Positions 1,178 to 44,950 of a stretch of DNA of 44,950 nt are shown piece after piece. The notes beneath the pieces were generated by a model. The model was not told the origin of the DNA, searched no databases, and saw only the letters and a list, made by a program, of their open reading frames with translations. The DNA is from a virus: positions 1 to 44,950 of IMG/VR virus record IMGVR_UViG_3300034069_000108, one strand, 5' to 3'. Position 1 is the stretch's first letter. Each line of letters opens with the position of its first letter. Both the position numbers and the translations under genes were made by a program.

Positions 1178-1744
1178 TTAAGCGACCGCCCGCAGACCCA
1201 GCTCGGGACCGTCGACCACCTGATCGTCAGCCGGTTGCACGTCAGCGACACGCACCAGCTTGAGGCCACCCAGAGCGATCGAGGCAGCACGGGCCGACGC
1301 AACGTCTTCCGGCTTGACCTTGCCTTCTTCGACCTGCTTGTCGATGCGCTTGGACAGACCCTTCACCATGTTGAGGATGGCGTCGAAGTCGAGCACCTTG
1401 CCTTCGGGGTTCTGTTCGGCGAGCGTGAAGAAGGGCGTTTCCCGCGCCGATTCGATGTTGAAGTCGGAGAAACCCTTGGCGTTGGGCTTGAGCATGCCGA
1501 CCTTCACCGCCAGACCGTCCTTCATCTGGAAACGAACCGGGGAATAAGTCTCGAACCAGAGTTGCAGCATGGTCCGGCGCATGGACGCAGGCATGGCGTT
1601 GAGAAGGTCCTTGGCCGTCGAGCAGTCACCGTGTTCCTTGGCGTGTTCCAGCACCAACACACCCGTGTCATGGATCAAATTATTGAGCTTCGTGGCGGTC
1701 GTGGTGATCGACTTGATGTTCTTTTTGATGGCTGCGAGGGTCAT
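1178..1744 (-). CDS. hypothetical early protein, 188 aa; first gene of the leftward arm
   Basis: ORF track. ATG preceded by an AAGGAAAC SD. Protein-like composition; I recognise no motif. Confidence 0.75.
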   Translation of the reverse strand: MTLAAIKKNIKSITTTATKLNNLIHDTGVLVLEHAKEHGDCSTAKDLLNAMPASMRRTMLQLWFETYSPVRFQMKDGLAVKVGMLKPNAKGFSDFNIESARETPFFTLAEQNPEGKVLDFDAILNMVKGLSKRIDKQVEEGKVKPEDVASARAASIALGGLKLVRVADVQPADDQVVDGPELGLRAVA

Positions 1745-1759
1745 GTTACTGTTTCCTTA

Positions 1760-1788
1760 TTGACAAACGTTCTCATTCATGGTATAAT
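1760..1788 (+). promoter_or_regulatory. consensus sigma70 promoter (TTGACA-17 nt-TATAAT) driving the HNH gene
   Basis: ttgaca aacgttctcattcatgg tataat read directly. Perfect hexamers and spacer. Confidence 0.75.
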
Positions 1789-1815
1789 ATGCGTAATAGG
1801 GAGAACGTACACACT

Positions 1816-2304
1816 ATGACACGCATACTTACTGACGAACAGAAAGAGCGCAAGAGGCTTTACAACATTGAATATCGTAAGGCCAATCGCGAGAAATACC
1901 GTGACTATAACAAGGCGTGGGTCAAGAGGTCCGGTCACAAGTCTACTGAACAGACTCGCAATCGTCGCGCTTCACTCACTAAGGCTCAACAGATGTTTGA
2001 AAGGTCGCGTGACCGTGCAAAGCATCAAGACATTGCCTTTGATATTACCCCAGAGGACATTGTGATACCTGAATTTTGTCCGTATCTTGGAATACCCATC
2101 GTTACTGGCGTTGGTAAGATGACTGACAACTCACCTTCACTTGACAGGATCGACTCGGCTAAGGGTTATATCAAAGGGAACGTCGAAGTTATTTCGTTTA
2201 GAGCTAACACCATTAAGAACTGTGGAACACCTCAAGAACACATGATGATTGGTATTCGACAGTTGAAACTGCTTAATCAGCAAACCCCACCACAGTCGCA
2301 TTGA
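1816..2304 (+). CDS. HNH/His-Me-finger (endonuclease VII-like) homing-endonuclease-like protein, 162 aa; paralog of 44195..44683
   Basis: Motif FCPYLGIPIV...SPSLDRIDSAKGYIKGNVEVISFRANTIKNCG. The start was moved to the ATG at 1816 (SD GGGAGA) because the ORF-track ATG at 1789 abuts the -10 box. Opposite strand to the flanking genes. Confidence 0.75.
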   Translation: MTRILTDEQKERKRLYNIEYRKANREKYRDYNKAWVKRSGHKSTEQTRNRRASLTKAQQMFERSRDRAKHQDIAFDITPEDIVIPEFCPYLGIPIVTGVGKMTDNSPSLDRIDSAKGYIKGNVEVISFRANTIKNCGTPQEHMMIGIRQLKLLNQQTPPQSH

Positions 2305-2754
2305 GTTGCGTAAACGTCTTAGCGGTGGGGGTTAACGAGGGATTTAATCTTAGGCTAACTCTCTTAGGTTAGCTCCCTCAATTTGTCATGCCCTAGGCTG
2401 CAACAGTCTAGCACGACTCAGACACCGTTGGATGTTAGCTAGGTCCAAAGCCTTCCCTACAGGGACGCCCCGACTCGTTAATTCGAGTCAGTCACGGACA
2501 CACTAAGTTTAAAGTACGGAGTTCGCACCCGCCTTAGTGCCTAACAACTAGAGGGACTTACTTTGGGAAGGAACGCACCCGAAAGTGCTCATTCGCCCGT
2601 TTCATGGCCTCTAATCGGTTGACTACGTTGCTTTCACCTCTAGCACACAAGCGGCTAACCCTGTGTCGTCGAGCACCCACTAGCCATGACACCTGTTACA
2701 GCGACACCGTGGACCCATTTAGAGGCAATGCTGAAAGCACCGCTGATGTAGATA

Positions 2755-2784
2755 ACTCTAGTCGAAACCAACGGTTCCTGTCAA
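2755..2784 (-). promoter_or_regulatory. candidate leftward sigma70 promoter (TTGACA-18 nt-TAGAGT)
   Basis: The reverse complement reads ttgaca ggaaccgttggtttcgac tagagt. Perfect -35; the -10 keeps T1, A2 and T6 only. Confidence 0.25.
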
Positions 2785-2984
2785 TCCCCTATTTTAGCGT
2801 CGGAGCCTAGAGAGGGACCACAAAGGGTGTCTAAGGCAATTCGGCTGCAAAACCCTCGTTTGCGAGAGCTTGTTGGGGAGTTGGCTAGAAGCCCGGTCCG
2901 TCTCGATGTCCAATAGGTAGGCCGGGTTGATTTGGAATGCAACTGTTATTTTCGGTCGTTGTTTGGATAGTTATTGTTTGTTTG

Positions 2985-3142
2985 TTGCGTGGCAGAAGTG
3001 CGGGTTGTAACAATGTTGCAGAAGGGGTGGAATGTTGCGTGCTGTTGTTCGTTTGTGTCGTCCGAAGCGTGGTCATGCGTAACAATCTTGCGTGAACTCC
3101 GTGTTCTTTGTTAGATGATTACCCTACGTGCGTATATGCGTG
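2985..3142 (+). repeat. iteron-like recurrence of a TGCGTG core (TTGCGTG x3, ATGCGTG x1) at roughly 50-bp spacing inside the GT-rich block
   Basis: ttgcgtg at 2985, 3035 and 3088; atgcgtg at 3136. AATGTTGC also occurs twice (3012, 3031). Confidence 0.5.
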
Positions 3143-3307
3143 CGTGTGTTCCTTGTGATCCTACGTGTGAGGTGTGTTGTATTGGTAAGACAGCAGATGG
3201 TGTGTGTGTGTTGTGCTATTGCTACTCATTTGCATTGTCTCTTTGCCAGTGGGGGCGAGGCTGCTGTTGCGAGAGGTCACTCGTGATACTCGTTCTCATT
3301 AGCAGGA

Positions 3308-3387
3308 GGGGGACAGGGGGGGGGTCCTTCCGGCCGGGGGTGCTAATGCGAATCACTTGCAAGAAGACCCCTATGGGTGGGGGGGGG
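3308..3387 (+). other. poly-G cluster: G5 (3308-3312), G9 (3316-3324), G5 (3336-3340), G9 (3379-3387). G-quadruplex-capable, slippage-prone homopolymers.
   Basis: Counted directly in gagggggacagggggggggtccttccggccggggg and gggtggggggggg. Confidence 0.7.
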
Positions 3388-3440
3388 CATGGATTGGTGT
3401 GTCTCTACCGGGCTTCATCAGGTGACCTCAGTCGTTACAG

Positions 3441-3468
3441 AAAAAAATTGAAGTTTTTACTACCTCAA
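3441..3468 (-). terminator. rho-independent terminator on the minus strand (UUGAGG-9 nt-CUUCAA followed by U7)
   Basis: Plus strand aaaaaaattgaagtttttactacctcaa. On minus-sense RNA the stem closes with a G-U pair; on plus-sense RNA the same position is an A-C mismatch. Confidence 0.45.
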
Positions 3469-3667
3469 TTTTAAGCCGTTTTAAAGGCCTTTGACTACCG
3501 GCCGCTACCCATGTACCAGACGACCCCGTATTGGCGCTGTACGGTGCCTTTCCGGAGGATTTAGGGGTAAGTAATTGACAGAGTAAAGGGCTCCTTACCA
3601 GTCGCCCCAGTCCTGGCCCGGAAACCAGCGTGAGGACTACCTGAAAAATAAAATCTTGATTAGAGTA

Positions 3668-3722
3668 TTACTAAGAGATAATTCTTTTAATAAGTTTCTT
3701 TATATATACCTCTTACTAAGAG
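3668..3722. repeat. operator-like repeats: TTACTAAGAG at 3668-3677 and 3713-3722. The second sits in a 13-bp palindrome, CTCTTAcTAAGAG (3710-3722).
   Basis: Read directly. Located between the divergent promoters at 3731-3759 (-) and 3794-3822 (+). Confidence 0.4.
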
Positions 3723-3730
3723 TAATAGAT

Positions 3731-3759
3731 AGGGTATCATACAATTCCATTTTTGTCAA
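3731..3759 (-). promoter_or_regulatory. candidate leftward promoter (TTGACA-17 nt-TACCCT with an extended TGn -10)
   Basis: The reverse complement reads ttgaca aaaatggaattgtatga taccct. Perfect -35, TG at -15/-14, weak -10. Confidence 0.35.
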
Positions 3760-3793
3760 TATAAATCTTTTTGTCATTCGTTAAAGAAAGTGC

Positions 3794-3822
3794 TTGACAA
3801 ATGGAGTGTTTTGGAGTATAAT
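3794..3822 (+). promoter_or_regulatory. consensus sigma70 promoter (TTGACA-17 nt-TATAAT) for the rightward packaging/structural arm
   Basis: ttgaca aatggagtgttttggag tataat, 32 nt upstream of terS. Confidence 0.8.
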
Positions 3823-3854
3823 AGAAGGACAGAGCACAGGGAGGTTTAAAATTT

Positions 3855-4430
3855 GTGACTGACACAGAAGAAGGGCTTCCGCTCCACACCAACAAAGCTT
3901 TAGCCATGCAGAAGGCGAAGCGTAAAAAGATTTCAGACAAGTCACAACAGGCCATTGACGACGGTGACATTCAGGCAGTGATCGACTCTTTGTCGGGCAA
4001 ACAGGTCGCTTTCTGTGAGGAGTACCTCAGGGACCTGAACGCAACTCAAGCCGTCCTGAGGGCTGGTTACAACACCCGCTTCCCCAATCGAATCGCCTTC
4101 CAGTTAATGGAAAATCCAGCGATTAGGATTGCGATCGACGCCCTTCGAGCTGAACGAAATAAGAACAGCGACGTAACAAAAGACTTCGTCCTAAAGGGCA
4201 TTCAAAAGGCCATTCGACTAGCGGAAGAATCGGGCAATCTCAACGCCCTGCTTCGTGGTCATGAATTGCTTGCTCGTCACCTTGGCATGTTTGTCGAGCG
4301 GACTGAAATCAGTGGGCCGGACGGCGAAGCAATCAAGATGGAACAAAAAGTAAAAGAAGATGTCGCAGATTTCACCAGCAAGCTTTCTCGCCTCGCTTCC
4401 GTCGGAACAACGGGCACAACTTCTAAGTGA
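3855..4430 (+). CDS. terS: terminase small subunit (Terminase_2-like)
   Basis: Motif KQVAFCEEYLRDLNATQAVLRAGYN. GTG start after GGGAGG. Immediately upstream of terL. Confidence 0.85.
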   Translation: MTDTEEGLPLHTNKALAMQKAKRKKISDKSQQAIDDGDIQAVIDSLSGKQVAFCEEYLRDLNATQAVLRAGYNTRFPNRIAFQLMENPAIRIAIDALRAERNKNSDVTKDFVLKGIQKAIRLAEESGNLNALLRGHELLARHLGMFVERTEISGPDGEAIKMEQKVKEDVADFTSKLSRLASVGTTGTTSK

Positions 4431-28898: not shown

Positions 28899-28974
28899 TG
28901 GCCCCAGACCAAGGACTCGAACCCTGCTAGGCGGTTTTGGAGACCGCTGCATCGCCCCTTAATGCTTGTCTGGA
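28899..28974 (-). tRNA. trnW: tRNA-Trp (anticodon CCA), 76 nt with encoded CCA end
   Basis: Hand-folded cloverleaf. Acceptor TCCAGAC/GTCTGGG, D stem GCAT/ATGC, anticodon stem GCGGT/ACCGC with loop CTCCAAA, T arm CAGGG-TTCGAGT-CCTTG, then discriminator G and CCA. Confidence 0.85.
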
Positions 28975-35248: not shown

Positions 35249-36022
35249 TTAGAGAAAGCGCTGAAAAGCTTCGACGTACTTCTCAGCCGTCCGCTCTTCA
35301 AGGCCACATGCCGTGTTGATTTCGAGGACGTAAGCCTGCTGTTCACGCTCGTTCCACATGACGTCCACACCACCGAAGTCGAGGTTCAAGGCTGCTGCTG
35401 CGTCAACTGCCTGCTGGATCACGTCGGCCGGAACGTCCTCGACTTGGACTTCAACAAACGCGAAACCGCCAGCAAGGTTGCGAACCTGCCAGTTAGGGTT
35501 TTCGTTGTCGAGCTTGCGGGCCTTACGCTGTACGAAGAAGGCACCCCCATTGAGAACATGAACACGGAACTCGTCCTTCTTCTTGACGTACTGAGTGTAA
35601 AGCGGTGCGTCGACCACCTCGTCCGGCGTGTTGGCCATAACGATGCCCGCACCACTGTGGCCGTTCAGCTTGGTGCGACAGACCACGACCGTGCCCCAGC
35701 CTACCGCAACAGCCCGCTCCTGACTAAACTCTGGTACTCGGACACCGGCTTCCTGAAGCGCATTGAACGAAGTGAGCTTGCACGACGCTGCCTTAACGGC
35801 TTCAGGGGCGTTGAGCCGGGTGGCGGCCGGAAAAACAGGACAACCAGAAGCACCCCAGTTAATAACCAAGTCACCAGCTCGGGGGTTGTACTTACTTCCG
35901 ACATGCTTGAGGACCTTTCCGCCCATTGCTTCGGCCAGCTTCTTCGCACTGGCACTGCCCTGATTGTAAGGATAAACGCGGACCACGGGACCACGTGCAA
36001 CCTTGTTCTGCTTCTTAATCAT
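35249..36022 (-). CDS. ATP-grasp ligase (RimK-like, phage type; 257 aa)
   Basis: Short pre-ATP-grasp region, then VVCRTKLNGHSGAGIVM, YVKKKDEFRVHV and FGGVDVMWN..AYVLEINTACGL, which resemble the ATP-grasp core and Mg-binding E-N. Confidence 0.8.
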   Translation of the reverse strand: MIKKQNKVARGPVVRVYPYNQGSASAKKLAEAMGGKVLKHVGSKYNPRAGDLVINWGASGCPVFPAATRLNAPEAVKAASCKLTSFNALQEAGVRVPEFSQERAVAVGWGTVVVCRTKLNGHSGAGIVMANTPDEVVDAPLYTQYVKKKDEFRVHVLNGGAFFVQRKARKLDNENPNWQVRNLAGGFAFVEVQVEDVPADVIQQAVDAAAALNLDFGGVDVMWNEREQQAYVLEINTACGLEERTAEKYVEAFQRFL

Positions 36023-36051
36023 CGTACTTCACTCCAAACTTGTGTGTTCTA

Positions 36052-37284
36052 TCAGTCTTCTTCGTCGAGGTCGTCACGAAGCGGGACAAGAGCTTCGAAG
36101 TCGACAGGACGGGCGTGCTGGGGTTCGTCCCATGCCTGAAGAAGACGGGCGCGTTCCTGTGCTGCCTGCATCATGCGTTCTTCCGCGTTCCGTACGTTAG
36201 CCGCTGCCTCAGCAAAACCGTCACCGAGGCGTACGTTCACCATTCCTTCCGGGTTGAAAAGAACACGTCCCGGAGCCTGACGAACACGGTTGACACGCGC
36301 TGCCGGACGGCCTCGCTGCGCCGCAAGAAGTGCTGGATCGACATCGAGAGCCGGTTCTTCATCACCAGCGAACGAGGCCCAAAAGTCGCGACCCCTAAGA
36401 CGCACCTGATCGAACTCGGTCCCGATGCGGTAACAGAGCATCTGCACCATGCGAAGACCTTCGTAAATCGAACCGCTGATGAGGTCGTCATTCAGGTTTG
36501 CCGTCAGAGCGTCGTAAGACTTGCGGCTGAACACTTCACGAAGAAAGCCCTTCGGCGTCTTGACCGAAATGTCTTCGATCAGGGTGGCCGGGTTCTTCAT
36601 CGTGTAACAAGCGTACTGACAGAACTCGTTCAGAATGTCGAGCCAAGCCAGAATGTCGGTCTTGTTGTCAAGCCCACGCATTGCACGGAACTCGACGGTG
36701 CCGAACTTGTTGATCGACGCCATGTTAAGCGAACAGTACCGCTGGTCCTCACGAAGAGTGCCGAACGACTGATGCTTGAACACTGCTTCCATCACCCAGT
36801 TGACCTGCTCTTCGGCGTGACGACTCGAAAGACAGAACAGGTTGCCCTTGCGGTCTTCACCACAGTAAGCGTCCAGAATGTCCTCAAGGATCGTGAACAG
36901 AATGAACAGATTGACGAGCTGGTACGCGCTCTTGTCGCCCATGTTGAAGTGGACGTGGAACGAAGTGCGATTCGAACACACGAGCTTGGCCTTGCGACCT
37001 TCGAAGTAGGTGAACAGCTTTTCGACACGGTCCACGCACTTTTCGTACTTGACAGGCCCGTTGAAGACCCACTCACAGCACGAGCCATGATGAGCACGAA
37101 GAGACCCGTCGTTGTGCGGAGCCCAGTCCTTCATCAGCTCAACACCTGCCTCCGACCCGTCGAAGTCCACGTTGCGACCTTCGCACTCCAACTCAAGGCC
37201 GAACACGTCTCCCTGCTTTGCACCACGACCCATACGAGTGACTGCCGGAACAGGGCTATTCAGAAAGTCTTGCAGCTTGGTCAC
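36052..37284 (-). CDS. glutamine-synthetase-like amidoligase (Amidoligase_2 family; 410 aa)
   Basis: FGLELECEG...HNDGSLR...CEWVF...SFHVHFNMG and FGTVEFRAMRG resemble the family core. Confidence 0.8.
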   Translation of the reverse strand: MTKLQDFLNSPVPAVTRMGRGAKQGDVFGLELECEGRNVDFDGSEAGVELMKDWAPHNDGSLRAHHGSCCEWVFNGPVKYEKCVDRVEKLFTYFEGRKAKLVCSNRTSFHVHFNMGDKSAYQLVNLFILFTILEDILDAYCGEDRKGNLFCLSSRHAEEQVNWVMEAVFKHQSFGTLREDQRYCSLNMASINKFGTVEFRAMRGLDNKTDILAWLDILNEFCQYACYTMKNPATLIEDISVKTPKGFLREVFSRKSYDALTANLNDDLISGSIYEGLRMVQMLCYRIGTEFDQVRLRGRDFWASFAGDEEPALDVDPALLAAQRGRPAARVNRVRQAPGRVLFNPEGMVNVRLGDGFAEAAANVRNAEERMMQAAQERARLLQAWDEPQHARPVDFEALVPLRDDLDEED

Positions 37285-37451
37285 TTCGTGTTACTCCTTA
37301 GATATTCTTCTAGAGCTTTTTCAGCCGTCTCTCTGGCCGTTTCTGCCCTAATTTCGTCCATACAGTTGTTGCCTCTGCTGGAAAGAATTTCCCAGACAGC
37401 AGCTTTTCTGTACTCGGCCATCAGTTGCTTTAAGCGAGAGGAATCCGACAT
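37281..37451 (-). CDS. hypothetical helical protein, 56 aa
   Basis: ATG at 37451, 7 nt after GGAGG. Overlaps the upstream gene by 22 nt and the next gene by a GTGA junction. Confidence 0.5.
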   Translation of the reverse strand: MSDSSRLKQLMAEYRKAAVWEILSSRGNNCMDEIRAETARETAEKALEEYLRSNTK

Positions 37452-38098
37452 TCTTCTGCCTCCTGCTTCAGAAAGTGGAACTTCGGGGGAAGTCGTAGCG
37501 CCTTGTCGTCCTTGAGAGCGATGCCGCACTTGACACCCTTGTGCATCAGAAGCAGTGCTTCCAAGTCGTGGTCGATTGCCAGAGCAAAGGTCCGCGAAAT
37601 GGCCACCGAACTGTGTTCCGCGTCACCAAGAAGCTCGCCCACGTCAGCAAACGTCGGGTACTTGCCGTTCACCATGTCGACGAAGCCCTGAGAAGCGATA
37701 ACCGACGCAAAGGAAACGTCGTCGTCCCGGTTGCCACGAATGTTCGTCAGCTTAAGCGTCTTGGAGTTGAGCCCCTGCTGATTTTGACGGACCGGGCTGC
37801 GGCTGGCGTAAAGAGCCTTGCCCTTGAAGTTAAGGTAGCCCATCTTGAACGGCGCAAGGTCGAAGTTGCGAGACGAAAGGTACTTACGCACTTCCTTCTG
37901 CTCCGGGCCGCCAAAACCACGAGTCTGGTAAGGCAGTTCGACGAAGAAGACGCGAGCCACTTCCTTCTTGTCTTCGGCTCCGTCAATTTCCTTGACACGA
38001 GTGATGTAAACGGGCTTGCCGTCGTACATGACCACCGTGTTGGCGAGACGGAAGTTGACCTCTTCCAGCGTCTCGTACTTGTCACCCTTGAGGCTCAT
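37430..38098 (-). CDS. conserved-looking hypothetical protein, 222 aa, inside the amidoligase operon
   Basis: ORF track; AAGGAAG SD. I recognise no motif. Confidence 0.75.
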   Translation of the reverse strand: MSLKGDKYETLEEVNFRLANTVVMYDGKPVYITRVKEIDGAEDKKEVARVFFVELPYQTRGFGGPEQKEVRKYLSSRNFDLAPFKMGYLNFKGKALYASRSPVRQNQQGLNSKTLKLTNIRGNRDDDVSFASVIASQGFVDMVNGKYPTFADVGELLGDAEHSSVAISRTFALAIDHDLEALLLMHKGVKCGIALKDDKALRLPPKFHFLKQEAEECRIPLA

Positions 38099-38116
38099 GG
38101 GTACGCTTCCTTGTGC

Positions 38117-38950
38117 TTAGAGTTCGCGGGCTGCGAGGTAGGCTTCACGGCCACCGCACTTGGCGAGGTAGTCCTTCAGATAGTACTCAGCCGAGTAGGT
38201 GTCGGACTGGTTGATGATCTGCTGAAGAACGTCTTCGCCGACGATGTTGAGTGCCCGCTTGCCAGCCATCAGGTCCTGCACGGCCTTGACGGTCTGATTG
38301 AAGACGAACTTCATCCGCTTTTCGTTGAGCAACCACGCATTCGAAAGGACGCGGTACTCGACACCGTACGACTTCGGGCGGAAGGCTCCGGCCTTGCCGT
38401 ACATGCCGCGGCGCTTCGTGTCCTTGTCGAACATCAGGCTGGGCAGGCCGAGGTAAGCGTCGAGCTGCTTGACCAGAGTGGCACACCGAATCATGTGGTC
38501 GTCGGACGTGGGGTCAGCACCCTGACAGAAGCCGATGTGAACGTGACCGCTGGCCGTACGCATCGTGGTCTGATTGTCCGGTCGCGGGTTGGCACCGAGG
38601 GTGTAAGCGTTGAAGTCGGGCTCGCAGCCCAGCTCCTTGGCTTCGTCCGGCTGAGCACGGAAGTGATTGCCGTTGAACCGCGCCGAAGGAACGATAGCGA
38701 AGTTGTAGTCCGGAACCATGTCCTGCATCTGCTTCATGACCGTGGTGATGTTGGTCACAAAGTCGTCGGCGTTGTCCACGGCGTCGATGTTGAACTCAAG
38801 TGCCATGCCGTCGACCTGAACCGCGCCCTTGTCGACCTTGTGCGGGTTCGCCTTGGTGCCGGGAATCAGGCCGTGTGCGCTGCGGAACTGGCCTTCCTTG
38901 TTGGTGACGAACAGTTCAGGGTCGGCACCGATGGTGATCTGAAGAGTCAT
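38117..38950 (-). CDS. phiEco32-type COOH-NH2 ligase (GCS2-like carboxylate-amine ligase; 277 aa)
   Basis: N-terminal ITIGADPELFV and the following layout match my memory of the COOH-NH2_lig family. AAGGAA SD. Confidence 0.78.
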   Translation of the reverse strand: MTLQITIGADPELFVTNKEGQFRSAHGLIPGTKANPHKVDKGAVQVDGMALEFNIDAVDNADDFVTNITTVMKQMQDMVPDYNFAIVPSARFNGNHFRAQPDEAKELGCEPDFNAYTLGANPRPDNQTTMRTASGHVHIGFCQGADPTSDDHMIRCATLVKQLDAYLGLPSLMFDKDTKRRGMYGKAGAFRPKSYGVEYRVLSNAWLLNEKRMKFVFNQTVKAVQDLMAGKRALNIVGEDVLQQIINQSDTYSAEYYLKDYLAKCGGREAYLAAREL

Positions 38951-38986
38951 GTTGAAGTTATTCCTTGCTAACAGAAAAATGCGGTT

Positions 38987-40264
38987 TTAATGGATGGAAA
39001 CAGCAGCCTTGGGCTCTTCATGAGCCGGATGGGAGCCGTCGAGGCACTTCTTGCAGACCGGACGACCCGGAGCCAACCACGCAAACCTGTCGTTCACGCC
39101 GATGTGTTCCAGTTCGCACCAGCTACAACCCGCGTCGAGGTCGTCACGAAGCTGATTCAGGGTCAGAGCCTTGCCCTGATACCCTTTGTAAGTCTTCCGT
39201 GCGTCGTCGATCGAAACAACCTTGTTACCCGTACCGTCGGGCAGGGCCAGCGTCGATCCAGTTTCGCTCTTCGGGGGTTGCTTCTCGCCAGAATCGCTTG
39301 TCGGGGTCCCAGATGGCGAAGTCGAAGTCAGCGGGGGAGTTCCTTTCTCCACCCACATTCGGCGGGTCGAGTCGTAAACCTTCCCCTCCAGCGTCCGGTT
39401 GCCGTACGACCCCGTTATCGGATGTGTGCTGCTCTGGCTGCTTGTTTGAGTCGTCGACGTTCCTTGCGGGTGAGGGTTCGTCGTGTTGTTGGGTCCACCC
39501 CGTCCACCAGTCGGTTGAAAAAAACCAGCGGTCTGCTTGCCGACCACGCCTCCTTCACGCTCGATGGTCAGCTCTTCGTTGTACTTGGTCGGAGCCGGAA
39601 TCTTGTAAAGCGTGTCTTCCGTGAAGGCGTAAACCTTGTCTTCGTGGAGCTTCAGATCGGACCGGCTGGTCGCAACCTTAATCATCCAGATTTCCGAAGC
39701 CCAGAACAGGGTCTTCTTGTCGTCCGACCACGCATAGAACAGGGTGCGTTCCTTGTTACGAACGATCCGCAGTTCTTCGGCGATGTGGTCGTAGTACGTG
39801 AGAGCCCACGCACCTTCGGCCTTGGCGATGGCAGCCTTGACGCCGTTGATGGCGATTTCGTTGTACAAGGCTTCAGAGTCCGTCCCGAAACGATTGTGGT
39901 CGGTCAGGGCATGCTTGTTCTTGAGGGTGCCGTTGTGAGCGCCAACCACCAAGCAACCCCCGTCCTCGTCGTCGATGGCGAAAGGATGAGCGTTGGTCTT
40001 GATGTTCTTGCCGATGGTGCCTGCACGGTTGTGGCCGATCCAGACGAAGTCGTTCAGCTTGAGATGTTCTGCCAGCTTGGGACCTTCGGTGAACTCGTAA
40101 CCCGGAACCGTCTGCTTGAGGATGGCAGTGTCCGCATTGTGACGGATGGCAGCGACGCCGGTCGAGTCACGACCCCGAAACGTGTCGAGGTAAAGCATGG
40201 TGGCGAGGCAGTCCTTGTGCTTCTGAAGCATGTTGGACGACATGATGCCGACGAGACCGCACAT
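38987..40264 (-). CDS. class-II (Ntn) glutamine amidotransferase with an S/T/P/G-rich linker and a C-terminal zinc ribbon (425 aa)
   Basis: Begins MCGLVGI (catalytic Cys2). RGRDSTG, HNR and GAHNG are GATase-II-like. The linker spans about aa 250-340. C-terminal CSWCE...CKKC. Confidence 0.85.
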   Translation of the reverse strand: MCGLVGIMSSNMLQKHKDCLATMLYLDTFRGRDSTGVAAIRHNADTAILKQTVPGYEFTEGPKLAEHLKLNDFVWIGHNRAGTIGKNIKTNAHPFAIDDEDGGCLVVGAHNGTLKNKHALTDHNRFGTDSEALYNEIAINGVKAAIAKAEGAWALTYYDHIAEELRIVRNKERTLFYAWSDDKKTLFWASEIWMIKVATSRSDLKLHEDKVYAFTEDTLYKIPAPTKYNEELTIEREGGVVGKQTAGFFQPTGGRGGPNNTTNPHPQGTSTTQTSSQSSTHPITGSYGNRTLEGKVYDSTRRMWVEKGTPPLTSTSPSGTPTSDSGEKQPPKSETGSTLALPDGTGNKVVSIDDARKTYKGYQGKALTLNQLRDDLDAGCSWCELEHIGVNDRFAWLAPGRPVCKKCLDGSHPAHEEPKAAVSIH

Positions 40265-40265
40265 G

Positions 40266-40424
40266 TTACTTAATCTCCTTCTTCTGGACAGTCACCACTT
40301 CCCGTGAGACCAGTTCGAAAAGACGACGCCCTGCGTAAAGACCGCTTTCGGCGTTAGCGAGGACTTCCTTCTCGGTCTTCTTTTCCGTAAAACCGTACGG
40401 AGTTTCGTAAGTAAATTTACGCAT
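40266..40424 (-). CDS. hypothetical protein, 52 aa (MRKFTYETPYGFTEKKTEKE...)
   Basis: ATG at 40424 after AAGGG. TAACATG junction to the GATase gene. Confidence 0.45.
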   Translation of the reverse strand: MRKFTYETPYGFTEKKTEKEVLANAESGLYAGRRLFELVSREVVTVQKKEIK

Positions 40425-40441
40425 GTTCTTCGCCCTTTCGA

Positions 40442-41128
40442 TTAGCAGGCAGGAATGACGTAGCTGTCGACCAAGTCGAGGAAAAAGTCTCGACACTCGC
40501 CGAAGGAAAACTCCGGATGAGGCTGGAAGCAGAGCGACCGAGTGGACTGATACCAGCACGCTTCCACGTCGGCATTTTCTTCCGGCTGTTCGAGGCGAAT
40601 TTCCTCACTGGCCGACTTCTTCACCGTGGCGAGGGTGGCAACGGCGAGAACTTCCGCGTCATCCGCCGGTCGCATCATCTGGTGATGGGTGGAAGTCATG
40701 TTGTGACGAACAGTGCCGTCGCGAAGGTCGACCACCGAATGGCCTCCGGTACGAGCGTGGTTGTTGACGTCCTGCCACAGCCTGCCGCCGTTCATCACGG
40801 TCAGAAACTGCGACCCACGACAGATGCCGACCATGGGCTTCTTGGACGCCACCGCGTCGATGTAAACCTGCTGTTCGACTTCGTCCCGCGCCGTGTTGAA
40901 GAACGTTTCCGCAAGGGCCTTTTCGCCGTACAGGGCAGGGTCAACGTCCGCACCGCCGGTGAAACAGATGATGTCAGCGTCTGCGACCGAAGTTGCACCC
41001 TTGAAGCCAGCGTCGAAGAACATCTTGATGTACTGGAACCCCCCGCCAACGACGAGAACACGCAGGTCCATGACTTCACGGGCCATTGCGGCTTCGTTGG
41101 CTTTCTTGACTTGTTCTTCGGTAAGCAT
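40442..41128 (-). CDS. class-I GATase-like / peptidase C26 (gamma-glutamyl hydrolase, PuuD-like; 228 aa)
   Basis: Nucleophile elbow VGICRGSQFL and CFQPHPEF (His-Glu). ATG at 41128 after AAGGAAAAC. Confidence 0.8.
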   Translation of the reverse strand: MLTEEQVKKANEAAMAREVMDLRVLVVGGGFQYIKMFFDAGFKGATSVADADIICFTGGADVDPALYGEKALAETFFNTARDEVEQQVYIDAVASKKPMVGICRGSQFLTVMNGGRLWQDVNNHARTGGHSVVDLRDGTVRHNMTSTHHQMMRPADDAEVLAVATLATVKKSASEEIRLEQPEENADVEACWYQSTRSLCFQPHPEFSFGECRDFFLDLVDSYVIPAC

Positions 41129-41217
41129 TTGTTCGTTTTCCTTGTTGTTAACTAAAGAGGTTGAGAAGCACATGAGCGGCAAAATTACCTAAAAGAAGGT
41201 AAAAAAGCACTTGACTT

Positions 41218-44143: not shown

Positions 44144-44172
44144 TTGACTTCCTTACCATTTTAATGTATAAT
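44144..44172 (+). promoter_or_regulatory. near-consensus sigma70 promoter (TTGACT-17 nt-TATAAT) driving the second HNH gene
   Basis: ttgact tccttaccattttaatg tataat. The downstream AATAGGGAAAGG resembles the leader of the other HNH gene. Confidence 0.75.
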
Positions 44173-44194
44173 AATAGGGAAAGGATTCGACAAG

Positions 44195-44683
44195 ATGACT
44201 ATGGAATACAAGACCAGCCTCGCTAAACGAGAGGCGCAGAAGAAGTACCGTGAAGCTAACCGCGACTACTATGTCGAGTACGCTAAAAGGTACAACCCCC
44301 GTTACTGCGACATGAATCGCGAGCAACGCAAAGAGTACGCCAAAGCCTACCACCTGAAGAAAGTAAACACCTTTGAAGGACGCACCCTGAAGATTTTCCA
44401 AGGAGCAAAAGGCAGGGCTACCAAAGCTGGAATTGAATTTACGATCGCTTACGAGGACATTGATTGGGTTAATGTCTGTCCTCTTCTTGAGATTCCTATC
44501 GTCTACGACTACGCTGGCGCATTGCAGTGGGACTCACCGTCGCTGGACCGTGTAGACAGTACGAAAGGTTATGTCAAGGGGAATGTTCGAGTGGTTTCAC
44601 GCCGAGCTAACACCCTCAAAAACTGCGGGACAGTTGACGAGATTGAAATGCTTGGCCGAAACATTCGGGGATATGCGTCCTAA
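44195..44683 (+). CDS. HNH/His-Me-finger (endonuclease VII-like) homing-endonuclease-like protein, 162 aa; paralog of 1816..2304
   Basis: VCPLLEIPIV...SPSLDRVDSTKGYVKGNVRVVSRRANTLKNCG. Same length and motif order as the paralog. Reverse orientation to its neighbours. Confidence 0.75.
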   Translation: MTMEYKTSLAKREAQKKYREANRDYYVEYAKRYNPRYCDMNREQRKEYAKAYHLKKVNTFEGRTLKIFQGAKGRATKAGIEFTIAYEDIDWVNVCPLLEIPIVYDYAGALQWDSPSLDRVDSTKGYVKGNVRVVSRRANTLKNCGTVDEIEMLGRNIRGYAS

Positions 44684-44904
44684 AACTCGGCGATTACACC
44701 CCCGTTGACGTCGTTTGTCATCGCAAGGGTCAGCCAAGCAATGTGCTTTGCTTGTACTTCGTCTCTGGACCTGCTGTACTTGTCCGAAGACTGTTTAGCC
44801 AGTTGGACCCAACCGAAAAGAGTGCGTTTTTCGAGGACAGTAACCACGTCCCAAGTGGACTGCGACACGGAAATGTCCCTCATGCGGTACTTGGGGCGCG
44901 GCAT
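44680..44904 (-). CDS. hypothetical early protein, 74 aa
   Basis: ORF track. Its 5' part lies in the terminal overlap and is therefore also seen at 1..95. Confidence 0.55.
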   Translation of the reverse strand: MPRPKYRMRDISVSQSTWDVVTVLEKRTLFGWVQLAKQSSDKYSRSRDEVQAKHIAWLTLAMTNDVNGGVIAEF

Positions 44905-44950
44905 GATGCTACACCCCGAACCGAAGCGTGAGGCGACCCGGCAGACGTGC
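44810..44950. repeat. second copy of the 141-bp terminal overlap (equals 1-141)
   Basis: Identical sequence, read directly. Confidence 0.95.

Follow-up and report, generated by a model that had tools for sequence, protein, structure and literature searches.

Comparative evidence for a conserved multi-helix RNA in the gene-free control region of a phage genome

The virus record IMGVR_UViG_3300034069_000108 of IMG/VR, whose 44,950 nucleotides (nt) are the window analysed here, is densely filled with genes except at positions 2305-3854, and this raises the question of what such a stretch is for if it does not encode proteins. The gap is a composite central control region situated between a leftward early and replication arm and a rightward terminase and structural arm. 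Comparison with related loci indicates that a conserved multi-helix RNA is encoded on the minus strand at 2277-2934, while the rest of the gap holds predicted promoters, an unstructured tract and a block of DNA motifs next to the gene for the small terminase subunit (TerS). Bases 1-141 of the window are repeated exactly at 44810-44950, as in a circular assembly with a k-mer overlap, giving a phage genome of about 44.8 kb. This end overlap is compatible with terminal redundancy or circular permutation.

A preliminary description, made from the sequence alone, reported that 2305-3854 is free of open reading frames (ORFs), and this is confirmed. The longest ORF encodes 119 amino acids (3115-3474, plus strand) and has no Pfam match, and the ORFs of the gap were rejected as genes because each of them gives only one or two fragmentary tblastn pieces in the relatives, compared to 95 and 21 for the flanking genes. 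The compositional subdivision proposed at the same time is also accurate. The sequence is balanced until about 2900 (GC content 0.50-0.53 at 2301-2900), there is a strong G+T excess from 2900 to 3400 (GC skew +0.27 to +0.36 and AT skew down to -0.44 at 2801-3400), and 3600-3800 is AT-rich (GC content 0.33 at 3601-3800).

About 100 related loci, designated by L-numbers below, were collected from IMG/VR, metagenomes and Logan assemblies using TerS and the PHROG 1448 protein, which is encoded by the first leftward early gene, as seeds. GenBank phages display no DNA similarity to the gap, nor to 24 kb of the window. The layout of the gap is kept in dozens of uncultivated relatives, and complete gene-free gaps of 1.3-1.9 kb are found in L010, L096, L099 and L100. 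L010 can be aligned with the window across the entire gap. A profile made from this alignment matches the right third of the gap in many loci, while the left part is matched in L091-L094 and L096 and partially in more distant loci. Some relatives have extra small ORFs in or beside the gap: L002 has a minus-strand ORF of 77 codons (3841-4074), and L002, L010 and L027 have ORFs of 66-86 codons between the terminase promoter and TerS, which are not found in the window.

A structured RNA on the minus strand

The preliminary description listed several short stems in the left part of the gap. These are present, but the sequence taken by itself folds no better than shuffled sequence on either strand (minimum free energy z-scores of -0.13 for the plus and -0.85 for the minus strand). 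Since the stems of a single sequence are not above chance, the structure becomes visible only via the relatives. There the stems GAGGGA/TCCCTC, which encloses GCTAAC/GTTAGC, GACTCG/CGAGTC and CACTAAG/CTTAGTG turn out to be real and preserved by compensatory changes; in a plain MAFFT alignment of six sequences the last of them is replaced by CAAGG/CCTTG, CTACAG/CTGTAG and CAATAG/CTATTG. The GCAC-CCGAAA-GTGC hairpin, described as tetraloop-like, also exists. It is located within a variable hairpin, and its minus-strand reading is a UUCG-type loop.

The six-sequence MAFFT alignment, here called A6, is unbiased in the sense that it was built without a structure model. It gives 159 base pairs in about 26 helices. 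Changes on both sides are found in 83 of these pairs, while the corresponding numbers are 42 for shuffled alignments and about 20 when the pairing partners are slid along the sequence. Of the cells of the pairs 90.9% can pair, compared to 75.6% after shuffling and about 40% with partners slid, and none of 500 shuffles reached the observed values. Covariation among relatives, the check proposed in the preliminary description, is thus strong for the 2305-2930 region, and it is found on the minus strand.

Several observations bear on the strand. RNAalifold predicts 159 pairs for the minus strand, 81 of them with compensatory changes, and a consensus energy of -128 kcal/mol, while the plus strand yields 115 pairs, 56 compensatory ones and -80 kcal/mol; with ribosum scoring the energies are -306.7 and -241.7, respectively. 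Within the 125 pairs common to both strand predictions, 39 cells are wobble pairs only when read on the minus strand and 10 only when read on the plus strand. Several G-U pairs of the core of the RNA are further invariant when it is read on the minus strand, and the hairpin at 2576-2589 has its UUCG-type loop there. The energies, the wobble asymmetry, the invariant G-U pairs and the UUCG loop together assign the RNA to the minus strand, and an RNA on the plus strand was rejected on the basis of the energies, the number of compensatory pairs and the wobble asymmetry.

It might be argued that the pairings reflect DNA-level structure, such as cruciforms or single-stranded DNA at an origin, or an artefact of the alignment, and that there is no functional RNA. 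The unremarkable single-sequence folding energy is what such a view would predict. However, more than half of the pairs of A6 are compensatory although no structure model was used, the shuffled and slid controls are far lower, the asymmetry of the wobble pairs depends on the strand, and a multi-junction fold of 650 nt would be unexpected for a DNA element. This view is therefore barely credible.

The RNA can be divided into four domains (Table 1). The core folds into a three-way junction that is closed by helices P1 and P2 and carries a long arm (P3-P4-P5) and one hairpin, P6, and it contains the conserved sequences CAUCAG at its 5' end and, elsewhere, GCUUAACGA and AGUCAACCGAU..CCAUGAAA. A covariance model of the core, R1, has 17 matches among 42 loci. 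All of these are antisense to TerS and located between TerS and the early genes, and they include distant loci whose terminases are 40-50% identical. In the alignment to this model 91.5% of the cells are paired, compared to 62% after shuffling, 36 of the 42 pairs have double changes, and 0 of 500 shuffles reached these values. That alignment was fitted to the model and thus leans towards the structure; the MAFFT-based alignment A4, which is independent of the model, gives 42 pairs for the core, 24 of them compensatory.

The other domains are more restricted. Domain 1, at the 3' end, displays a terminal 9-bp hairpin around a 4-bp hairpin, a GGGGA/UCCCC helix with a variable inserted hairpin, and the invariant sequence CUAAGAUUAAAUCCCC; its covariance model, R2, matches only the seven closest relatives and none of the distant ones. 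Domain 2 contains CACUAAG/CUUAGUG, GACUCG/CGAGUC, the UUCG-type hairpin and the invariant sequence AAGUAAGUCCC, and the sequences of its helices are entirely different among relatives while the pairing is preserved. The model of domain 4, R3, matches the close relatives as well as L099 and L095. In this domain 85.8% of the cells are paired (76.7% after shuffling), 10 of 16 pairs have double changes, and the wobble pairs favour the minus strand by 10 to 2. Scans of IMG/VR for exact patterns based on two conserved motifs of the RNA gave no matches in one case and nine chance matches without the core in the other.

The 3' boundary of the conserved RNA coincides exactly with the insertion point of a gene for an EndoVII/HNH homing-type endonuclease. 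The last 22 nt of the endonuclease ORF overlap the terminal hairpin of the RNA, and the stop codon falls in the hairpin loop. The gene is missing in L010, L091 and L096, whose homology to the window begins at 2283, and because of this sporadic occurrence it is considered to be outside the conserved region. It looks as if the gene had arrived by homing only recently, at a target of high sequence conservation. A paralogue is located at 44195-44683 and has its own near-consensus promoter (unit 44144-44683).

Large structured RNAs of the GOLLD and ROOL type were among the possibilities first considered for the region. A large RNA with strong covariation indeed exists, but on the minus strand and outside all Rfam families. 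A search of the whole window with Rfam 15 at the gathering score gave no match, a search of both strands of 2200-3950 with E up to 10 gave only a chance match to the L31 leader (E=0.83), and the gaps of nine homologous loci gave no match. Since no Rfam covariance model matches, GOLLD, ROOL, HEARO, OLE, introns and tmRNA are ruled out. For group I and II introns and tmRNA it can be added that ARAGORN finds only a tRNA-Trp and that the flanks of the RNA are intergenic or belong to a separate endonuclease gene. The RNA resembles GOLLD and ROOL in being phage-borne, non-coding and several hundred nt long, with many covarying helices and multi-way junctions. GOLLD and ROOL are often found near tRNAs; the RNA of the window differs in its probable position in the 5' leader of an early operon, in having neither its own terminator nor a tRNA neighbour, and in being conserved across the family only in its core. 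It appears to represent a new family, as set apart by Rfam 15 and not by comparison with the catalogue of 10,006 candidate structured RNAs from IMG/VR, which could contain fragments of it (PMC10690425). Phage RNAs derived from 5' untranslated regions have already been documented as a general phenomenon (PMC10914365).

Promoters, unstructured tract and DNA motif block

The pattern TTGACA-N16-18-TAnnnT is found at seven distinct sites in the genome, while 0.76 are expected, and all seven are oriented like the local genes; two of the seven are leftward sites within the gap. Three predicted promoters lie in the gap (Table 1). The back-to-back pair of P(-)1 and P(+) is conserved in most loci, often with both in perfect consensus form, and in 8-9 of 16 loci the -35 box of P(-)2 precedes the first position of the core by 23-24 nt. 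On the minus arm no further leftward consensus site is found from the gap to about 35 kb, that is, over the first approximately 11 kb of early genes, and no intrinsic terminator is found inside or after the RNA. From the lack of any other promoter before these genes and of a terminator in or after the RNA, we infer that the RNA forms the 5' leader of the early operon; this leader would measure about 470 nt if transcription starts at P(-)2 and more if it starts at P(-)1.

Between the RNA and the motif block the minus strand is A+C-rich and poor in G. In five relatives the fractions are 0.34-0.41 for A, 0.30-0.33 for C and 0.12-0.16 for G, and RNAalifold predicts no pairs for this strand; the plus strand of the G+T-rich middle displays weak, G-U-rich pairing only. 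The C/G ratio of the tract has a median of 1.8 and a maximum of 3.8, the 99th percentile of the genome being 1.86, and the gap holds 29 of the 43 windows that make up the top 1% of the genome. If transcribed leftward, the tract would thus carry the signature of a rut site, with at least 80 unstructured nt and C well above G.

Table 1. Positions of the features in and beside the gap, numbered as in the window.
Feature	Positions	Strand	Remarks
PHROG 1448 (phrog_1448) gene, first leftward early gene	1178-1744	-	79% identity to a minus-strand gene of L010
Predicted promoter of the endonuclease gene	1760-1788	+	12/12 consensus positions
EndoVII/HNH homing-type endonuclease gene, free-standing insertion	1789-2304	+	phrog_3322, E=5e-34
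RNA domain 1 (3' domain)	2277-2386	-	A6 helices 24-26, with compensatory changes
RNA domain 2 (middle domain)	2387-2593	-	about 8 helices, A6 helices 16-23
RNA core domain	2594-2755	-	about 160 nt; conserved family-wide
Predicted promoter P(-)2, sigma70-type, TTGACA-18-TAGAGT	2755-2784	-	AAAATAGGGGA box upstream; transcription predicted to start near 2748, a few nt ahead of core helix P1
RNA domain 4	2785-2934	-	moderate support; upstream of P(-)2
A+C-rich, G-poor unstructured stretch (G+T-rich on plus strand)	2935-3290	-	short conserved blocks, e.g. ATGACCACG
Iteron-like repeats TGCTAATGCGAATCA	3214-3228 (+), 3290-3304 (-), 3341-3355 (+)		bracket the first G9 run (3316-3324)
Second G9 run (3379-3387) followed by CATGGAT	3379-3394	+	hallmark motif of the family
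A-tract/T-tract ACAGAAAAAAATTGA	3437-3451		present in 12/12 aligned relatives
Near-palindrome GCTACCCATGTACC	3504-3517		centre flipped in L017 and L027
TTGACA box (3575-3580), then hairpin GGGC-TCCTTACCAGTC-GCCC (3588-3607)	3575-3607
AT-rich segment, GC content 0.33, CTAAGAG-type direct and inverted repeats	3640-3730		directly downstream of P(-)1; equivalents in relatives
Predicted promoter P(-)1, TTGACA-17-TACCCT with TGn	3731-3759	-	perfect TTGACA-17-TATAAT in many relatives
Predicted promoter P(+), perfect TTGACA-17-TATAAT (3794-3822)	3794-3854	+	with TerS leader and GGAGG ribosome-binding site

The right third of the gap is a matter of DNA rather than of RNA. The stretch 3441-3640 had been characterised as hairpin-dense, which does not hold: there are two small conserved hairpins and almost no consensus structure, and consensus folding reveals essentially no RNA structure in 3370-3645. 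In the hairpin at 3588-3607 the stem covaries (GGGC/GCCC versus GGGCC/GGCCC) while the loop is conserved. The operator-like repeats noted in the AT-rich part are real, with TTACTAAGAG occurring twice together with an overlapping inverted copy at 3668-3722. The flipped centre of the near-palindrome in two relatives suggests that it is a DNA site, and the A/T tract is a candidate bend or unwinding element.

Three of the four genome matches to the iteron-like repeat lie within this block, and related copies flank the G-run in L091, L093, L094, L001, L002, L097 and L100. The two G9 runs are the only runs of at least seven G in the window, and a run of at least six G is located 300-1100 nt upstream of TerS in all of the 15 loci examined. 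The contigs of 11 relatives (L004, L023, L035, L091-L094, L097, L098, L044 and L001) stop at the G-run or no more than about 120 nt away from it. Either there is a physical terminus here, or the assembly breaks systematically at the homopolymer.

The block at 3290-3760 may contain a pac or terminal site or an origin. As for packaging, a TerS of the Terminase_2 family is found together with repeat boxes in the A/T-rich DNA upstream of its gene, as in SPP1. The SPP1 pac region consists of pacL, pacC and pacR, and regions of the lambda cosB type are likewise recognised by terminase. The window resembles both in having a cluster of short repeats and presumably bent A/T DNA just ahead of a TerS gene of the Pfam family of SPP1 G1P. 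Its block, however, extends at least 470 nt upstream, and neither its G9 run nor its conserved hairpin is a feature of SPP1 pac. HNH-dependent cos packaging of the HK97/phi12 type was rejected, as the HNH gene is sporadic (missing in L010, L091 and L096), the large terminase subunit (TerL) is of the Terminase_6N/6C type and the portal of the P22 type. As for an origin, P(-)1 is followed by DNA with a GC content of 0.33, and the genome encodes a T7-like PolA and primase-helicase, as for a transcription-primed origin. T7-type primase sites are not enriched, and the GC skew gives no origin signal at the gap, as it follows transcription.

Genes of the two arms and comparison with T7-like phages

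The preliminary description placed the gap at the divergence point of two gene arms. This is correct only after re-annotation, in which 1178-1744 is a minus-strand gene and the plus-strand ORF 1789-2304 is the inserted endonuclease. The leftward arm contains the early genes, an amidoligase/glutamine amidotransferase cluster and the genes for the T7-like primase-helicase and PolA, while the rightward arm encodes the Terminase_2 small subunit, the Terminase_6 large subunit, the P22-type portal and structural proteins. TerS is of the SPP1 type (PF03592, E=6e-17) and starts with GTG at 3855. No RNA_pol domain is found in any ORF of at least 440 codons in the window, and a phage RNA polymerase was thus not found. 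The cluster of the early arm (35249-41182, minus strand) is phiEco32-like and comprises a RimK-like ATP-grasp protein, an amidoligase, a COOH-NH2 ligase and two glutamine amidotransferases; it is also conserved in L091, L096, L097 and L100. The only match of the tRNA or tmRNA type that ARAGORN finds in the window is a tRNA-Trp(CCA) at 28899-28974 on the minus strand. A tRNA gene is found inside the early arm of relatives as well (L097, 2231-2303; L100, 6370-6443).

The first early protein has no match in Pfam or PDB. Homologues are found in 416 GenBank phage records, and all of those inspected belong to the Autographiviridae. For most of the records listed, the distance between the gene and the start of the record is 1.3-2.3 kb, and in Cd1, BC, RSB1, Petty, tf and others the gene lies at 1.3-2 kb from the left end. 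In Caulobacter phage Cd1 (L110) it is the first coding sequence, starting at 1510 after five annotated sigma70 promoters (467-912), which leaves a leader of about 600 nt (912-1510). The corresponding leaders are found at about 800-1419 in the Brevundimonas phage BC (L113) and at about 2340-2962 in Babayka (L111). In these three leaders 400 of 639 alignment columns are identical, they fold better on the sense strand and display compensatory changes, and none of them matches an Rfam family.

An early-promoter region as at the T7 left end had been another of the initial suggestions, and the layout fits this in having phrog_1448 as the first gene, sigma70-type promoters and a leader. The gap is similar to an early region at a T7-type left end because the homologues of its first early gene come first there; in Cd1, too, the homologous gene is preceded at the left end by a gene-free stretch of about 1.5 kb that has early promoters of the sigma70 type and a long leader. 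The window differs in that no single-subunit RNA polymerase was detected, that there are two divergent arms, and that the terminase genes adjoin this region rather than the far end. C-runs 85-130 nt from the left ends of Cd1 and BC bear a loose likeness to the G-run of the window as read on the early strand.

The likeness extends to the promoters. The box upstream of P(-)2, ATAGGGGATTGACA, recurs at early promoters of Brevundimonas T7-like phages. In the form AAAATAGGG(G)ATTGACA (2784-2795, minus strand) the upstream box of P(-)2 is shared with early promoters of L113 (about 590-610) and L111 (about 1940-1990), which hints at one kind of early promoter that includes an UP-like element. When the leaders themselves are compared, profile searches with the RNA of the window against the Cd1-type leader find only the shared promoter boxes (ATAGGGATTGACA box), and the core model gives a single local match to the Cd1 leader, GGUCCGC..GCGGGUGCU at Cd1 1089-1131 (E=3.5), which corresponds to the P3-P5 arm. 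Homology between the RNA of the window and the Cd1-type leader is for now a lead provided by these sequence matches.

Possible functions of the leader and the motif block

HK022 put RNAs and Bacillus EAR are RNA-only processive antiterminators located in operon leaders; put is about 70 nt long with two stem-loops, and EAR about 120 nt. The RNA of the window is similar to these in being a folded RNA just after an early or operon promoter and before a long unit transcribed by host polymerase, with no phage protein obviously needed. Only a few nt separate the core from the predicted start of P(-)2, about 11 kb of genes follow with no other promoter ahead of them, and a phage RNA polymerase has not been found. 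In contrast to put and EAR, the core is about 160 nt long, forms a three-way junction and resides inside a leader of 470-650 nt.

The gap as a whole is best explained as a control region whose leader acts in cis on the early transcript and whose motif block serves packaging or the genome ends, an explanation that we consider to have an even chance of being right. The folded core, which is made first, would keep host RNA polymerase elongating through several hundred untranslated nt and through the long operon. It might do so as a processive antiterminator of the put or EAR kind; alternatively, the leader might merely block the access of Rho and of 5'-end nucleases and thereby stabilise the transcript. 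Transcripts from P(-)1 would enter a poly-C run and the C-rich unstructured tract, and Rho would probably stop them. The G-run, the iteron-like repeats, the A/T tract and the AT-rich repeats beside the SPP1-type TerS gene would make up a packaging-recognition or terminal-repeat region, and P(-)1 with its AT-rich DNA might double as a transcription-primed origin for the T7-like replisome. This function of the RNA is what we infer from sequence comparison.

Several points weigh against this explanation. P(-)2 is missing or shifted in 5-6 of the 16 loci that have the core, and domain 4 is located upstream of P(-)2, which makes the true 5' end of the RNA uncertain; promoters and start sites are predicted from sequence throughout. 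The early arm shows no enrichment of intrinsic terminators, leaving Rho as the sole reason for antitermination. Neither put nor EAR shows similarity to the RNA, which no Rfam family matches at E<=10, and antitermination is argued from position. The combination of a core found family-wide with a periphery specific for sub-clades could equally suit an aptamer that binds a ligand or a protein. Finally, the contig breaks scatter within the G-run and nearby, one contig (L035) starting with G19, and they may be an artefact of assembling a homopolymer.

For the motif block an alternative is that 3290-3760 is a physical genome end or terminal-repeat boundary with a packaging recognition site, and neither an origin nor an RNA element, which we rate slightly below even chances. 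The breaks in 11 independent contigs would be explained in this way, and so would the C-runs of Cd1 and BC, which have the same orientation relative to the homologous early gene; the SPP1-type TerS gene 470 nt away, with AT-rich repeat boxes in between, and the circular assembly, compatible with terminal redundancy, point in the same direction. On the other hand, the window and many other contigs read through the G-run, the breaks do not occur at one fixed nucleotide, the initial G19 of L035 is artefact-like, and the similarity to the C-run of Cd1 is weak. It is far less probable that the gap is an origin where the RNA acts as a replication pre-primer, as in ColE1 RNA II or at the T7 primary origin, its 3' part being hybridised to DNA and extended by the phage family-A polymerase. 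The RNA has about the size of RNA II, the phage has the T7-like PolA and primase-helicase without a detected RNA polymerase of its own, AT-rich DNA follows P(-)1 as at the T7 origin, and iteron-like repeats are present. Yet a leftward RNA over the G-run would be C-rich and G-poor, which disfavours a persistent R-loop, the RNA runs directly into genes, and neither the primase sites nor the skew mark an origin; we regard this possibility as very unlikely.

Two further alternatives concern the RNA itself and compete with action in cis as an antiterminator or protective leader. The size and complexity of the fold, its invariant unpaired motifs, which suggest binding partners, and its occurrence in a phage outside any known family would suit a stand-alone, trans-acting non-coding RNA like GOLLD, ROOL or OLE, processed from the early transcript and serving as a particle or scaffold that sequesters a host factor or counters defence. 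The homing endonuclease at the exact 3' boundary would also be in line with this, as it leaves the RNA intact. Such an RNA is nevertheless unlikely here: a dedicated terminator is missing, the first early genes begin right next to it without an intervening promoter, family-wide conservation is limited to the 160-nt core, and there is no tRNA neighbourhood. More doubtful again, though ahead of the pre-primer, is a sensor, in which the core would be a riboswitch-like aptamer or protein operator that tunes the early operon to a host metabolite or to a protein of the phage or the host. What one would look for in an aptamer is seen here, namely a three-way junction that spans about 130-160 nt, has conserved nucleotides at the junction and occupies the extreme 5' end of the predicted transcript, together with a constant core surrounded by variable peripheral domains, and the unusual amidoligase, glutamine amidotransferase and ATP-grasp cluster in the operon offers something to regulate. 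However, there is no recognisable expression platform and no terminator/anti-terminator alternative, the first start codon is 300-470 nt downstream of the core, and no riboswitch model matches.

Only a small number of bacterial or phage RNA classes are known that exceed about 400 nt and have many covarying helices, and classes of this kind have repeatedly led to new biology. The RNA described here sits at the head of the predicted early operon of a phage that apparently relies wholly on host RNA polymerase, it is found in at least 17 independent metagenomic phage contigs, and an analogous, possibly homologous, structured leader exists in cultured Caulobacter and Brevundimonas T7-like phages. 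Its position, its recurrence and the cultured analogues make the strategy for early transcription, as well as RNA-only control of polymerase or Rho, directly testable. The G-run block accounts for a common assembly break point in this phage group and marks its likely packaging or terminal region. The findings also raise the question of whether host RNA polymerase or Rho is controlled by RNA alone more often than the single example of HK022 implies. A broader proposal, which we put forward tentatively and with clearly less than even confidence, is that the RNA, whose fold comprises more than 20 helices in 0.5-0.65 kb around a core of about 160 nt, represents a previously undescribed class of large phage RNAs, that it acts autonomously on the host machinery, for instance by reprogramming host RNA polymerase or Rho when infection starts or after processing into a particle like those of ROOL and GOLLD, and that it is a diverged relative of the Cd1-type leaders. 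If this is true, such RNAs would be common in early phage transcription and accessible to experiment.

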